From positions 11,575,540-11,639,539 of the forward strand of contig NC_057749.1 in the NCBI RefSeq assembly GCF_004010195.1: a stretch of DNA of 64,000 nucleotides. Direction: 5' to 3'. This DNA is from Chiloscyllium plagiosum (lineage: Eukaryota). Shown here one piece after another: positions 2,581 through 54,509 of this stretch. Positions within the stretch are counted from its first letter, which is position 1; every line of letters starts with the position of its first letter. The notes below the pieces were generated by a model. It was not told the DNA's origin, searched no databases, and saw only the letters and a list, made by a program, of their open reading frames with translations. The position numbers and the translations under genes were made by a program.

Positions 2581-2813
2581 AGTTAAAAATCACACAACAC
2601 CAGGTTGTAGACTAACAGGTTTATTTGGAAGCGCTAGCTTTCCGAGTGCTGCTCCTTCAGGTGGTTGTGCAGCATAAGAATATAATTACAACTACCTGGT
2701 GAAGGAGCGGTGCTCCGAAAGCTAGTGCTTCCAAATAAACCTGTTGGACTATAACCTTATGTTGTGATTTTTAACTTAGTACACACCAGTCCAACACCCG
2801 CATCTCCAAATCA
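2581..2813. mobile_element. Penelope-like pLTR fold-back mini-element (family B)
   Basis: Inverted arms ~2581-2668 and 2688-2776 plus a 37-nt tail; same terminal sequence as the Penelope at 41155; degenerate TSD ttgatccagga/ttgatcgaaga. Confidence 0.8.
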
Positions 2814-2875
2814 TTGATCGAAGAATTTTCGTAAGTAATTGAAATTGTAACAGATTCCGCAACTTGTCTTTACAG

Positions 2876-2976
2876 CTAACATCAATTTGAATTCGATGAA
2901 CGAAGGCTGGTATGGGGCTCTGAAGGAATCTGTTCAGCAGCAACAGAGCCAGTTAGTTTGGGTCTCAGAGGGCAAG
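2876..2976 (+). CDS. TJP1: TJP1/ZO-1 internal exon (end of guanylate-kinase-like domain)
   Basis: tacag|CT...GGCAAG|gtagga; translates (x)[33 protein letters not shown], matching the ZO-1 GUK C-terminus; phase 1 to phase 0. Confidence 0.95.
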
Positions 2977-3763
2977 GTAGGATGAAAATTTATTATAATT
3001 TAAATCAAAACTGCACAATGTTATACTAAAATCTCTTTTTTCTTCTCTTCCCCACTGCATTATGTCATGAGTAGGCAGTGACTCACTCTGCTTTATTGCC
3101 TGTACCTATATAAATTCCCTGCCAGTATTGTCAGTGATGAGTAGATTATAAGAAATGACTAGTATTCTTCCTGCAAGTTCCTCTCTTGTGCTGTGACATA
3201 AAGAATTTGCAACATTACATATCCAATTCCTTTGGGAAAACAGGCAGGGGAGTTTTTGAACCAGTTAGTGTTTTGGTGTTTGAAATCTGAGTGTATGAAC
3301 TCCAGGAAGCGTTCCTGAGAAATTTGTTTGTATTTATATTGTTAAGAAAGTTGATGACTGGAGGGTTACTGAAGCACACCAATAAGTTGCAAGATTTGAA
3401 ATTGTTGAGAAGATGGATAACACTTGGTGCACGATCACATGGTGGGGGGGGGCTGTGGGGGGAGGTAAATCAACCAATGTTCCCACTCCTGATCACTACA
3501 GAATGATCTCTCCGGCAAAATGGCATGTATGAAGTCAGATGCATGAAGAATGATGTGAATATTCCTGCTGGAAAGTTATAAGACCTTTGCCCCTGCCAAC
3601 ACGCACACGCATGCGTGCACACCAGTTTCTCCAGGACTTTAAGAGGAGGAAGATCCTTCACATTTCTAATAATCCAGCTGGTCAATGGATGTTAACAAAA
3701 CACCTTGTTTACTGCTAAGTGTAATATTTGTTTAATTGTGTGATTTGACTGTTCTTTTTGTAG

Positions 3764-4105
3764 GCTGATGGTACAGCAGAGGATGATCTTGACTTGCACG
3801 ATGATCGCTTGTCATATTTGTCAGCTCCAGGCAGTGAGTACTCTATGTACAGCACAGACAGTAGACACACTTCAGATTATGATGACACAGATACTGAAGG
3901 TGGTGCCTACACTGACCAAGAATTGGATGAGACTCTCAACGATGAAATTGGTCCTACAGAATCTGCCATAACTAGGTCCTCAGAACCTGTACGAGATGAT
4001 TCGTCAATGATGCACTCTGAGTCAATGGCGCCGGCCTTCCCATCCTATCCAGTACAAGTTCAGAGAGTGGACTCTCCTGTGTACAAGCCTTTGTCTAATC
4101 AACAG
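3764..4105 (+). CDS. TJP1: TJP1 exon, acidic U6 region
   Basis: tttttgtag|GCT...CAACAG|gtgagt; 342 nt, ADGTAEDDLDLHDDRLSYLSAPGSEYSMYSTDSRHTSDYDDTDTEGGAYTDQELDETLNDE...SNQQ. Confidence 0.97.
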
Positions 4106-4605
4106 GTGAGTTCACTCTGATTTAAGTAGTTAATGTGTTTGATTAAGTGGTAATATACTATGTTAAAGGCAAAGCTTATTAGAATTCTGTCTCTTTTATT
4201 TGGAAAGTCTTGTTATAGCAATTGTATGGTAAGTTAAGTATTGAATTTACTTTGCATCTTTCAATGTAGAAAACAGTTCCCAGGTACCTCATGGCCATGA
4301 GGTAAAAATGAACATCAAACTGCAGAAGGAAATTGTATATTTGTAGTACAGATTTTGAGTATTGCCAAAAAAAAATGTACCTTTTGTTGAAGTCTTTCAA
4401 CTTGGTCTCATCTGGACATCTCTCCCAGAAATATAAGTTTAAGGAGAACCGATGCATATGCTGGAAAAGAGGAGAATACAGGTTGGTTGGCAAGTGGAAT
4501 CTGATCAGCAGAGATGCTGCCTTGGAAATGCACCCGTCAGTGCTGTTTGACAGTTAACTGCCAGGCTTTGTTTAAGTTTTAAACCAGGCAGAGTGATCAG
4601 ACTGG

Positions 4606-51534: not shown

Positions 51535-51905
51535 TTAACTCGTGTCAGTGTTAGGTATGGCACCGTCATTGTCAGGTTAAGCTGGTCATTACCCAGTTAA
51601 CCCGCGTCTATTTCAAATTAACTAGTGTCAGTGTCAACTGCTGTCTGTCACGTCGTACAGTGGATGCTGAAGATCTGAAATGAAAACAGTGCTGGAGGAA
51701 CTCAGCAGGTCGGACATCACCTATGGCGAGCAACAGAGTTAGTATTTTGAGTCCAGTGTGACTTTTCTTTGAAACTCGTGTCAAGCTGACTCGGGGAAAT
51801 GTCAGGTTTACTCTGGTCAGTGTCAAATTAAACTCAGGTCACTGTTAGGTATAGTCATTTCAGTACAAGGTTAACCTGGGTCAGTGTCAGGTTAACTCTA
51901 GTCAC
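51535..51905. repeat. Degenerate ~21-bp tandem repeat in ENTREP2 intron 1
   Basis: Recurring GTCAGTGTCAGGTTAACTCTG-like unit, interrupted by a pLTR-like fragment at ~51657-51772. Confidence 0.6.
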
Positions 51906-53132
51906 TGGGGGAAGTGAGGTCTGCAGATGCTGGAGATCAGAGCTGAAAATGTGTTGCTGGAAAAGCACAGCAGGTCAGGCAGCATCCAAGGAGCAGGAGA
52001 ATCGACGTTTCGGGCATGAGCCCTTTTTCAGGAATGAGGAAAGTGTGCCAAGCAGGCTAAGATAAAAGGTGGGGAGGAGGGACTTGGGGGAGGGGCGTTG
52101 GAAATGCGATAGGTGGAAGGAGGTCAAGGTGAGGGTGATAGGCCGGGGTGGGGCAGAGAGGTCAGGAAGAAGATTGCAGGTTAGGAAGGCGGTGCGGAGT
52201 CTGAGGGTTGGGACTGAGAAAAGGTGGGGGGAGGGGAAATGAGAAAGCTGGAGAAATCTGCATTCATCCCGTGTGGTTGGAGGGTTCCTAGGCAGAAGAT
52301 GAGGTGCTCTTCCTCCAGGCGTCGTGTTGCCATAGTCTGGCGATGGAGGAGGGGGAGTTAAAGTGTTCAGCTACGGGGCGTTTGGGTTGGTTGGTGCGAG
52401 TGACCCGAGGTGTTTTCTGAAACGTTCTGCAAGTAGGCGGCCTGTCTCCCCACTGTATAGCAATAGTCCATCTTCCGCAGCTACACTGGCACCACCCCCC
52501 ACCTTTTCCTCCACTTCATCGATAACTACATTGGCGCTACCTCGTGCTCCCACAAGGAGGTTGAACAGTTCATCCTCCTAACACCTTCCACCCCGACCTC
52601 AAATTTACCTGGACCGTCTCAGACTCCTCCCTCCCCTTCCTAGACCTCTCCATTTCTATCTCGGACGACCGACTCAACACGGACGTTTACTATAAACCGA
52701 CAGACTCCCACAGCTACCTAGATTACACCTCCTCCCACCCTGCCCCCTGTAAAAACACCATCCTATATTCCCAGTTCCTTCGCCTTCGCTGCATCTGCAC
52801 CCAGGATGACCAATTCCAATACCGAACAACCCAGATGGTCTCCTTCTTCAAAGACCGCAATTTCCCCTCAGACGTGATTAATGATGCTCTCCACCACATC
52901 TCCTCCACTTCCCCCTCCTCCACCCTTGAACCCCGGCCTTCCAATCGCCACCAGGACAGAACCCCACTGGTCCTCACCTACCATCCCACTAACCTCTAGA
53001 TACATCGTATCATCCTTCATCATTTTTGCCACCTCCAAACAGACCCCACCACCAAGGATATATTTCCCTCCCCACCCCTATCAGCGTTCCGGAAAGACCA
53101 TTCCCTCCACGACTCCCTCGTCAGATCCACAA

Positions 53133-53756
53133 TGTAAGTGTTCAAAGTTTGTGCGAAGATATGTAGCTCGGGTGCTCGTTGTTGTGGTTCTGTTCGCCGA
53201 GCTGGAAGTTTTTGTTGCAAACGTTTCGTCCCCTGGCCAGGCGACATCATCAGTGCTTGGGAGCCTCCTGCGAAGCGCTTCTTTGATGTTTCCTCCGGTG
53301 TTTATAGTGGTCTGTCCCTGCCGCTTCCAGTTGTCAGTTTCAGCAGTTTCAGGTCCAGATCGATGTGTTTGTTGATGGAGTTTGTGGATGAATGCCATGC
53401 CTCTAGGAATTCCCTGGCTGTTCTCTGTCTGGTTTGCCCTATGATAGTAGTGTTGTGATAGTACAACACTACTATCATAGGGCAAGCCAGACAGAGAACA
53501 GCCAGGGAATTCCTAGAGGCATGGCATTCATCCACAAACTCCATCAACAAACACATCGACCTGGACCCAATATACCAACCACTACAGCGGACAGCTGAAA
53601 CTGACAACCGGAAGCGGCAGGGACAGACCACTATAAACACCGGAGGAAACATCAAAAAAGCGCTTCGCAGGAGGCTCCCAAGCACTGATGATGTCGCCTA
53701 GCCAGGGGACGAAACGTTTGCAACAAAAACTTCCAGCTCGGCGAACAGAACCACAA
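53133..53756. mobile_element. Penelope pLTR fold-back element (family C) nested in the family A element
   Basis: Arms 53181-53456 and 53463-53757, loop gatagt, 48-nt tail; TSD CAGATCCACAA at 53122 and 53757; REFLEAWHSSTNSINKHIDLD GIY-YIG tail. Confidence 0.92.
53685..53718 (+). ncRNA. Minimal type I hammerhead ribozyme core
   Basis: GCA-CTGATGA-T-GTCGCCT AGCC AGGGGAC-GAAA-CGTT-TGC; palindromic AAACGTTT; intact mirror copy on the minus strand at 53220-53253. Confidence 0.75.
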
Positions 53757-54406
53757 CAGATCCACAACCCCCATCAACCCAACCTCCACTCCTGGCACCT
53801 TCCCCTGCAACCGCAAGAAATGCAAAACTTGTGCTCACACCTCCCCCCTTACTTCCCTCCAAGGCCCCAAGGGATCCTTCCATATCCGTCAGAAATTCAC
53901 CTGCACCTCCACACACATCATTTACTGCATCCGCTGCACCCAATGTGGCCTCCTACACATTAGGGAGACAGACTGCCTACTTGCGGAACATTTCAGAGAA
54001 CACCTTTGGGACACCCGCACCAACCAACCCAACCGCCCTGTGGCTGAACACTTTAACTCCCCCTCCCACTCCGCCAAGGACATGAGGGTCCTTGGCCTCC
54101 TTTATTGCCAGACCATGGCAACACGACGGCTAGAGGAAGAGCGCCTCATCCGCCTAGGAACCCTCAACCACAAGGGATGAATGCAGATTTCTCCAGCTTT
54201 CTCATTTCCCCTCCCCCCACCTTTTCTCAGTCCCAACCTTCAGACTCAGCACCGCCTTTTTGACCTGCAATCTTCTTCCAGACCTCTCCGCCCCCACCCC
54301 CTCTCTGGCCTATCATCCTCACCTTAACCTCCTTCCACCTATCGTATTCCCAATGCCCCTCCCCCCTACCTTTTTTCTTAGCCAACTTGGCACACGCTCC
54401 TCATTC

Positions 54407-54434
54407 CTGAAGAAGGGCTTATGCCCGAAACGTC
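54407..54434 (+). ncRNA. Minimal hammerhead ribozyme core
   Basis: CTGAAGA-A-GGGC TTAT GCCC-GAAA-CGTC with perfect stem II. Confidence 0.75.
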
Positions 54435-54509
54435 AATTCTCCTGTTCCTTTGATGTTGCCTGACCTGCTGCGCTTTTCCAGCAACACATTTTTAAATTCT
54501 CATGCATGA

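Follow-up and report, generated by a model that had tools for sequence, protein, structure and literature searches.

The window analysed here, 64,000 nt of Chiloscyllium plagiosum contig NC_057749.1, contains four insertions (E1 to E4) that each consist of two inverted arms, and the question they raise is whether such fold-backs propagate as hairpins or are made afresh whenever an element integrates. Very probably each arose independently, when an endonuclease-positive Penelope-like element (PLE) of one of three families inserted in the standard format for such elements, with the fold-back made at that integration and no hairpin master inherited. The standard unit is a 3'-end copy beside an inverted, 5'-truncated second copy, with 3' ends outward, an optional 30-50-nt tail on one of them and one target-site duplication (TSD) around the whole. 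The features of the window are as follows.

2571-2580 (ttgatccagg) and 2814-2823 (ttgatcgaag), no strand: degenerate TSD of E1, 8/10 positions identical
2581-2668, minus strand: inverted arm of E1, tail-free; outer end AGTTAAAAATCACACA; family reference positions about -3 to 87
2669-2690, no strand: junction of E1, 22 nt, particular to this locus; the spanning 42-mer is single in the genome at ≤3 mismatches
2691-2813, plus strand: sense arm of E1, with core 2691-2776 and 37-nt tail 2777-2813
4592-4605 and 4952-4965, no strand: TSD of E2, AGTGATCAGACTGG, 14 bp, exact
4606-4794, minus strand: inverted arm of E2; its outer end is a 36-nt tail, 4606-4641
4795-4798, no strand: loop of E2, ctct; the loop and flanking gaag/cttc are native to the element (...ccttgaagaagctctCTTCC...)
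4799-4951, plus strand: sense arm of E2, tail-free, with putative minimal hammerhead boxes at 4862-4889 (CTGAAGA...GAAACGTC)
41156-43020, minus strand: additional 5'-truncated PLE of the E1 family, with ORF remnant 41883-43020, a TATAAAT-bearing stretch, then module and tail at 41156-41280
51907-52460, minus strand: inverted 5'-truncated copy in E4; its outer end is a 35-nt tail, 51907-51941
52470-54162, plus strand: coding remnant of E4, what is left of a PLE RT-endonuclease ORF, its C-terminal ~330 codons, interrupted by the nested E3
53122-53132 and 53757-53767, no strand: TSD of E3, CAGATCCACAA, 11 bp, exact, within the E4 ORF
53133-53456, minus strand: inverted arm of E3; its outer end is a ~48-nt tail, 53133-53180
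53457-53462, no strand: loop of E3, gatagt; both arms end at one native nucleotide (ACAACACTAC...)
53463-53756, plus strand: sense arm of E3, tail-free, with putative hammerhead boxes at 53685-53718 (CTGATGA...GAAACGTT); it exceeds the left arm by 19 nt
53953-54492, plus strand: sense arm of E4, the tail-free 3' end of the main copy, with putative hammerhead boxes at 54407-54434

The original prediction had described four loci with inverted arms, one arm of each longer by 35-48 nt, and all four were found at the coordinates it gave, with 35-49 nt extra on one arm. The arms of E1 (2581-2668 and 2691-2776) are 82-100% complementary, with a 79-nt BLAST alignment at 85% (unit positions 10-86), while those of E2 are complementary at 96% over 160 nt around the 4-nt loop. 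The E3 arms, around a 6-nt loop, pair at 98% complementarity in two blocks that the 19-nt indel separates, and the E4 arms (about 51946-52460 and 53953-54492) are 76-93% complementary by block, or 81% with gaps. The arms had been called pLTRs; their inversion holds, but the E4 arms are more than pLTR and include ~200 nt of endonuclease coding sequence. The predicted TSDs at the three short loci are likewise present, exact at E2 and E3 and degenerate at E1; inspection of the E4 ends showed no TSD. The predicted RNA fold of E2 is a single long hairpin (-310.9 kcal/mol, z = -31 versus shuffles), in which the hammerhead core boxes would lie inside a ~155-bp duplex. A chance origin is excluded by the exact 11- and 14-mers that abut the element ends and by the z-score of this fold. 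E2 and E4 have in common only their final ~155 nt (94%), and the E2 subfamily is short and non-coding, with a 5' part unlike E4. The additional PLE at 41156-43020 has no inverted arm.

All three families are PLEs, as had been proposed, judging from homologous proteins and from modules that adjoin ORFs. In a tblastn search, residues 769-968 and 962-1083 of protein P0043 (1,097 aa; annotated PF00078, PF28514, PF01541 and PF26215) matched E4 on either side of E3, at 52470-53191 and 53794-54162, and the E4 interior matches proteins with relatives that combine RVT_1 (PF00078) with GIY-YIG (PF01541). E4 holds only the C-terminal third of this protein because the copy is 5'-truncated. A Pfam search of the ORF fragments themselves gave no match, which leaves the homologues and tblastn as the basis for calling the coding part PLE. 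E1-type and E3-type modules were found directly behind such ORF remnants, in the window at 41883-43020 and at five loci elsewhere (L046, L056, L058, L059 and L061). The hallmarks of endonuclease-positive PLEs are present: an RT/GIY-YIG ORF, an inverted 5'-truncated copy, a tail and a TSD of variable length. The arms of E1, E2 and E3 contain no ORF and no upstream promoter-like region, in agreement with the earlier statement that the short loci encode no RT, and we regard these three as dead on arrival.

The assignment of ribozymes to these loci depends on motif reading, and Rfam hammerhead models gave no match to the loci even at E ≤ 10. The available parts of PMC4209133 describe the minimal hammerhead of metazoan PLEs as having CUGANGA and GAAA boxes with an extra base between 9 and 10.1, a G10.1-C11.1 pair and palindromic positions 15.2-16.2, and candidates for these features can be read in all three families. 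The putative boxes are CUGAUGA-A-GGAGC..GCUCC-GAAA-GCU in the E1 type, CUGAAGA-A-GGGC..GCCC-GAAA-CGU in the E2 type and CUGAUGA-U-GUCGCC..GGGGAC-GAAA-CGU in E3. In E1 itself both cores are mutated; the hammerhead-like boxes of its sense arm, at 2696-2724, have the core CTGGTGA, and an AATAAA follows at 2734-2739.

Since assemblies are known to be troubled by the inverted structures of PLEs (PMC8557442, as far as its available text goes), the palindromes could in principle be assembly or library artefacts. We give this almost no credence, as divergence between the arms is 2-18%, with a 19-nt indel besides, the element ends are bordered by exact TSDs, and contigs from a separate DNA run under the same species label (X17) contain many joints of opposite strands in the same family. 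The four hairpin repeats are real, and their anatomy, already published for PLEs in the parts of the literature available to us, is that of usual insertion scars in a shark-type genome.

A non-autonomous class of hairpin elements, in which a whole hairpin master is transcribed and reverse-transcribed, had been offered as one explanation of the short fold-backs. Such a class should share its junctions, and it fails this test. In searches of the 3.56-Gb assembly at ≤3 mismatches, the junctions of the three short loci were each unique: the 42-mer of E1 and the 38-mer of E3 matched only themselves, and the 32-mer of E2 matched itself and one locus with 3 mismatches (L033), where native sequence is duplicated in tandem and there is no fold-back. 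At this threshold E1 junction copies that are old and diverged could be overlooked, because the family is only ~91% alike. The proposed junction gaag-ctct-cttc proved to be native subfamily sequence, which runs on through GAAG-CTCT-CTTC at six other loci, but the fold-back made at that mini-palindrome is unique to E2; it is a small native palindrome where E2 copying would have folded back. Similarly, the native sequence continues upstream of the E3 arm endpoint in at least 11 other loci. We found 36 further fold-backs of the same families, with junction offsets and fillers that differ at each: 18 of the E1 family (L065-L071, L074, L076-L080, L082, L084, L086, L088 and L094), 16 pairs of the E3 family, and L003 and L005 of the E2 family. 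Most of the other E1-family fold-backs have TSDs, of 9-14 bp; among 17 that were searched one was found in 13, comprising 7/7 by reading (10-13 bp) and 6/10 by a script for exact repeats, one of the latter a 7-mer that by eye is 11 nt with one mismatch.

Several observations do fit a family of hairpins. Short non-coding units derived from PLEs are abundant, with 2,100-4,100 first-look candidates per query, of which 40 were scored, so that samples are small; fold-backs make up 10 of the 11 short copies in an unbiased E1-family sample; and in 15/18 of the other E1-family fold-backs the junction lies within ~10 nt of one position, with inner arm ends clustered ~31 nt downstream of TATAAAT. This clustering looks family-like on its face, yet the fillers and the ends of the partner arm vary from locus to locus. 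Against a hairpin master, besides the junctions, an alignment of E1-type arms has none of the shared, master-specific differences expected between the two arms of one master, and the TATAAAT-bearing stretch present upstream in longer copies is missing from the arms. Propagation as hairpins is therefore very improbable. Short non-coding families derived from PLEs do exist, namely an E2-type unit of ~250 nt and an E1-type module of ~125 nt, but they are short as linear units, and the hairpin is added per insertion event.

The results support the other explanation offered, namely that the integration mechanism yields fold-backs as stereotyped products, which matches the insertion anatomy published for PLEs in the available parts of PMC8557442, PMC3846280 and PMC11167929. 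The most likely order of molecular steps can be proposed. Reverse transcription would begin at one of two internal sites near the RNA's 3' end, the tail being the stretch between them, and the cDNA would extend to a stop or to the RNA 5' end. Its 3' end would then prime on itself or on a second cDNA through a few bases of homology, giving the inverted arm, and resolution of the intermediate at the core/tail boundary would be confined to one side. Counting against this reading are the undetected TSD of E4 and the TSD of only 8/10 at E1.

The tail is informative about these steps. For copies of all three families there are two alternative 3' ends, one at the core and one 36-48 nt beyond it, consistent with the description of the tail in PMC11167929, within its available text, as the sequence between two RT start sites. 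The tail sequence of E1 recurs on family copies. A single tail was present in 19/19 fold-backs of the E1 family, including all 10 recovered with a tail-free query, while lone 3' ends in that same unbiased sample were tailed in 5/10. One-sided tails were also the rule in the E3 family (14/17 pairs) and the E2 family (~13 of 15 interpretable pairs), samples that are biased toward tail-bearing arms as their queries contained the tail. Fold-backs with two tails do exist, one in the E2 family sample (L022) and three in the E3 family sample (L050, L053 and L060).

A sub-variant of the preferred reading holds that the arms are two separate cDNAs, made from two RNA copies with one priming at each of the cut target strands, and joined midway. 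The PAc protein (Poseidon of Anolis carolinensis) cuts and extends both target strands in vitro and is a predicted dimer (PMC11167929, available parts), and asymmetric arms with fillers of up to 73 nt occur at L077, L084 and L094. Independent choice of ends would predict many two-tailed or tail-less fold-backs, however, against 10/10 one-tailed with lone ends at 5/10 in the unbiased E1 sample, and E2, E3 and L076, a palindrome without a loop, are symmetric to the base. We regard this variant as possible, if on the unlikely side. More speculatively still, the near-strict one-tail rule might mean that insertion proceeds via one hairpin intermediate, in which the element endonuclease makes a single cut at the core/tail boundary, instead of through two primings independent of each other. 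In the E1 family a TATA box belonging to the repeat, 31-32 nt upstream of the fold point, would then drive a ~125-nt transcript whose 5' end is that point, each short hairpin would represent a complete copy of the smallest mobilisable PLE RNA, and the template RNA would skip the in-vivo poly(A) site of the E1-type module.

It had also been suggested that the antisense arm could neutralise the ribozyme in introns. A related reading is that fold-backs would be kept or favoured there by masking a harmful sense-arm signal in read-through transcripts, either the hammerhead or, for E1-type modules, the poly(A) signal. The predicted E2 hairpin, with its core boxes in the duplex, would fit this. The AATAAA of the E1-type module is followed after 12-15 nt by added A-runs in 369 and 522 RNA reads (run X21), and in two Xenopus genomes introns are reported to be depleted of retrozymes, which are PLE derivatives (bioRxiv 10.64898/2026.07.22.740005, available parts). 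The premise is weak, however, since there is probably little activity to neutralise: single minimal PLE hammerheads had no detectable self-cleavage in vitro in the available parts of PMC4209133, and the cores of both E1 arms are mutated. The integration mechanism accounts for fold-backs without selection, and a fold-back places one sense copy in transcripts of either direction, so that exposure is doubled as much as it is masked. We consider selective retention by masking improbable.

The loci closely resemble the canonical Penelope/Poseidon unit as given in the available parts of Craig et al. 2021 (Fig. 2, PMC8557442) and Arkhipova et al. 2013 (Fig. 2a, PMC3846280), with a head-to-head 5'-truncated copy in inverted orientation, a tail of 30-40 bp on just one end, a variable TSD (9-14 bp here), a putative minimal hammerhead motif, palindromes at inverted junctions, and an ORF of RT with a C-terminal GIY-YIG. 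PMC8557442, including the legend of its Fig. 2, describes the inverted 5'-truncated copy with a tail on one end only, and PMC3846280 a 31-bp tail on one inverted pLTR with a 9-bp TSD, the junction palindromes being interpreted there as self-priming. As far as these sources describe the unit, nothing essential differs; three of the four loci keep just the terminal ~90-320 nt per arm, and the E3-family tail is slightly long at ~48 nt. As in these families, the tail of PAc is optional and spans the interval from one 3' end to an alternative one, but in the available account of the in vitro reaction, where both target strands are cut and extended, start-site use is equal between strands (PMC11167929), whereas genomic fold-backs here are nearly always one-tailed. 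This points to coordination at a step that escapes the in vitro assay as described there. What our analysis adds is modest, namely the strict one-tail rule in the unbiased E1-family sample and the clustering of inner ends ~31 nt downstream of TATAAAT.

Mammalian L1 elements with an inverted 5' part, ascribed to twin priming, likewise arise from a single target-primed insertion with one TSD, as at the loci here. They belong to another element class with another enzyme, and join two segments of the same RNA copy, one of which is inverted and the other direct; unlike the present loci they have no duplicated 3' end and no tail.

Animal non-LTR retrozymes are tandem hammerhead repeats and non-autonomous PLE derivatives (bioRxiv 10.64898/2026.07.22.740005, available parts; see also PMC7229834), and the short loci resemble them in being short, non-coding derivatives of PLE terminal repeats with a candidate hammerhead. 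Retrozymes are head-to-tail tandems thought to move via circular RNA, whereas at all four loci here the units are inverted relative to each other, head to head, and their junctions are unique, and we rejected an assignment to this class. A separate array of the E2-type unit on contig C20, with a period of 663 bp, is a retrozyme-style tandem.

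Four insertions in the window consist of two inverted arms whose 3' ends face outward, one arm ending in a tail of 35-49 nt that the other lacks; we call an arm without its tail the core. Such fold-backs with one-sided tails had been noted at these coordinates, and both reading and repeat detection bear this out.

Fold-back insertions with their arms, tails and target-site duplications (TSDs)
E1, 2581-2813: arms 2581-2668 and 2691-2776, 82-100% complementary (reading and repeat detection); junction of 22 nt; 37-nt extension on the right arm; flanking repeat identical at 8 of 10 positions
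E2, 4606-4951: 160-nt arms, 96%; loop of 4 nt; exact 14-bp duplication; 36-nt extension on the left arm
E3, 53133-53756: arms 98% with one 19-nt indel; loop of 6 nt; exact 11-bp duplication; extension of about 48 nt on the left arm
E4, 51907-54492: arms of about 550 nt, 76-93% by block; coding remnants between them on the + strand; 35-nt extension on the inverted left arm

E3 lies within the E4 ORF and is the younger of the two, because arm identity is 98% in E3 and 81-88% in E4. The left arm of E3 (53348-53351) is without 19 nt that are present in its right arm (53568-53590) and in the family, and a small duplication, tgaaactg, lies at the gap; this reflects either a slip while the second arm was copied or a later deletion. 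Fragments resembling E3, older and diverged and lying in both orientations, adjoin the right end of E4 (54519-54663). E4 may have inserted into or next to a pre-existing copy of a Penelope-like element (PLE), which could account for its absent TSD. Directly to its left are three tandem repeats of about 43 bp, 63-80% alike (51793-51907).

A homologue search with a 144-aa reading of the E4 interior gave 97 relatives (E<=0.001). Sharks and rays have the closest ones, and many of the 97 carry RVT_1, PF28514, PF26215 and GIY-YIG domains. By tblastn, one such protein of 1,097 aa matches on both flanks of the E3 insertion, with its residues 769-968 on one and 962-1083 on the other, and E4 is therefore a 5'-truncated PLE; Pfam searches with four E4 ORF fragments gave 0 families at E<=0.1. 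A fifth PLE copy lies at 41156-43020 on the - strand, where an ORF remnant (RT C-terminus and endonuclease, 41883-43020, by tblastn) is followed by a TATAAAT-bearing stretch and then by an E1-type module with its tail at 41156-41280; no inverted arm for this copy was found within 3.5 kb. ORF remnants also stand directly upstream of E3-type units at five other loci in the genome (L046, L056, L058, L059 and L061, by tblastn). Since such remnants occur beside E1-type and E3-type units and in E4, all three families are PLE families. E2 has only its last ~155 nt in common with E4, at 94%, and belongs to a short non-coding subfamily with a unit of about 250 nt. These fold-backs are no new kind of element.

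Nor is their architecture new, the combination of fold-back, one-sided tail and TSD being already in print. The available text of PMC8557442 describes an inverted 5'-truncated copy in PLEs, as at these loci, and that of PMC3846280 reports a 31-bp tail on one inverted pLTR with a 9-bp TSD and attributes palindromes at inverted junctions to self-priming. Of the two origins originally proposed, that of stereotyped products of integration is right, and it matches the published description of PLEs.

The other proposed origin, a family of hairpin mini-elements with common loop junctions, is refuted by the junctions themselves, under the criterion that came with the proposal. We searched the 3.56-Gb assembly for junction-spanning patterns of E1, E2 and E3 with up to 3 mismatches. 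The E1 and E3 patterns each occurred at their own locus only, and that of E2 at its own locus and at one 3-mismatch site, which is a tandem duplication of native sequence and not a fold-back. The sense unit of the E2 subfamily continues upstream of the E2 junction as ...ccttgaagaagctct|CTTCCTCC... at six other loci, so gaag-ctct-cttc, which had been named as a loop junction to look for at many loci, is a native mini-palindrome (4 bp, 4 nt), and only the E2 fold-back junction built on it is unique. The inverted arm of E2 starts exactly at this mini-palindrome, as expected if a cDNA end had folded back and primed itself. Two other E2-family fold-backs (L003 and L005) are joined at other positions. 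Both E3 arms end at one same native base, upstream of which at least 11 other loci run on, and offsets differ among 16 other E3-family pairs. Filler and arm offsets are likewise individual to each of 18 further E1-family fold-backs (7 picked for an adjacent inverted match, 1 found by chance and 10 from a query without the tail). Reading showed TSDs of 10-13 bp at each of the 7 loci with an adjacent inverted match; an exact-repeat script found TSDs at 6/10 loci of the tail-less-query set, one of them a 7-mer that by eye extends to 11 nt with one mismatch.

The regularity that does extend across loci is the one-sidedness of the tail. In the tail-less-query sample of the E1 family, 10/20 loci are fold-backs (loci were taken as stretches of ~330 bp, in which inverted partners more than ~170 nt away would be missed), and the tail is on exactly one arm in 10/10, although it is partial in two and the inverted part is a mere tail fragment in one. 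Lone 3' ends of the same sample carry the tail in 5/10; were tails independent at p=0.5, the chance that all ten fold-backs would be one-tailed is about 0.001. Across all E1-family fold-backs the count is 19/19. It is 14/17 in the E3 family (L050, L053 and L060 are two-tailed) and about 13/15 in the E2 family (L022 is two-tailed; L005, L011 and L012 are complex), both samples being biased toward at least one tail. Either the longer or the shorter arm may bear the tail. At two loci the second "copy" is a tail only, direct in L019 (G000:C5:61214885-61215155, TSD cagttttgaaag) and inverted in L082 (G000:C18:53154375-53154720); these are cases of extreme 5' truncation and show that a tail can be deposited by itself.

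Fold points in the E1 family also favor one position. In 15/18 other fold-backs the inner end of the longer arm lies from -10 to +3 relative to ACCACCTGATGA, most often at -3/-4. In longer copies TATAAAT stands 35 nt upstream of the A of ACCACCTGATGA, and the A three bases before ACCACCUGAUGA stands 31-32 nt after TATAAAT; the usual spacing from TATA box to start would put transcription start at about -5 to -3. We infer that these arms would be full-length cDNAs of a transcript of ~125 nt. RNA reads aligned to an E1-family copy showed no pile-up of read starts or ends, in a poly(A) single-cell library poorly suited to 5' ends, and 0 reads aligned from a further RNA run (X22). A cap-derived extra G at arm starts was considered and dismissed, as the g's before ACAAC are partner-arm sequence. 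Ribozyme-cut RNA ends were likewise rejected as fold points, only 1/38 E1-family arm inner ends (L088, +37) lying within 3 nt of the predicted cut at +33/+34, which agrees with the in vitro observation that insertion does not need cleavage (available text of PMC11167929).

Every fold-back represents one insertion event; a single duplication encloses a pair of arms that are outward-facing copies of the same 3' end, one ending 36-48 nt further out, and junctions fall at microhomology, native palindromes or one preferred position. In the in vitro system described in the available text of PMC11167929, two internal RT start sites bound the tail, and cutting and extension take place on both strands of the target. 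Target-primed reverse transcription would begin at either start site, distal or proximal; the end of the cDNA would then prime on itself or jump to a second cDNA, and the intermediate would be resolved once, at the core/tail boundary. We give the self-priming form of this scheme, with its single resolution, about an even chance of being correct. Priming of two cDNAs from both target strands seems possible but rather unlikely, since the one-sidedness of the tail disfavors an independent choice of start site. The almost invariable one-sided tail, seen in dozens of natural single insertions, is a modest step beyond the published work and constrains models of PLE integration, as do fold points that coincide with native palindromes or with a single preferred position.

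Read by eye, three sense arms have hammerhead-like features, which the available text of PMC4209133 lists for minimal hammerheads of metazoan PLEs: the boxes, one additional base following position 9, G10.1-C11.1 and palindromic 15.2-16.2. Rfam gives no hammerhead: a gathering search of the whole window returned 0 matches, and relaxed searches of both regions found none even at E<=10. The relaxed matches are to miRNA, snoRNA and lncRNA models only, under their cut-offs and mostly triggered by palindromes. Those to miRNA precursors lie at the fold-back centers (53394-53525 and 4772-4821; e.g., MIR2934 at 54 bits and mir-4436 at 51 bits, on both strands), and we reject this identity as an artefact of perfect palindromes, all scores being below gathering. 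Relaxed miRNA matches are thus a trap for annotation, in which these hairpins ought to be masked as fragments of PLEs and not taken for microRNA-like genes.

At least 4 E2-type units (hammerhead part and tail) stand at an exact 663-bp spacing on another contig (L024-L027, G000:C20:58067043-58069192), a head-to-tail array resembling the style of animal retrozymes. Tandem Repeats Finder, whose longest detectable period of 500 is below this spacing, reported nothing on L025.

It had also been proposed that the antisense arm masks the sense ribozyme in intronic read-through transcripts, which we regard as a weak proposal. An E2 transcript is predicted to form a single long hairpin with the core boxes hidden in its stem (-310.9 kcal/mol, z = -31), so the masking step would be physically plausible. 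However, the E1 cores are mutated in both arms, transcripts of either direction still receive one sense copy from a fold-back, and, according to the available text of PMC4209133, no cleavage could be detected in vitro for minimal PLE hammerheads taken singly. Retrozymes are depleted from introns in Xenopus according to bioRxiv 10.64898/2026.07.22.740005, whose available text is silent on fold-backs.

A poly(A) site in the E1 module would be a more tangible hazard to introns than the ribozyme. In an E1-family copy elsewhere in the genome (L083, 217-240), RNA reads of run X21 carry untemplated A-runs after places 234 (369 reads) and 237 (522 reads), 12-15 nt past the AATAAA of the module, and sense-strand depth there drops from 1394 to 313. 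The A-runs and the drop in depth suggest that the module functions as a poly(A) site. Genomic E1-type copies continue 25-65 nt past the A-run site, and the same module is also present in the window at 2691-2776 and 41156-41280.
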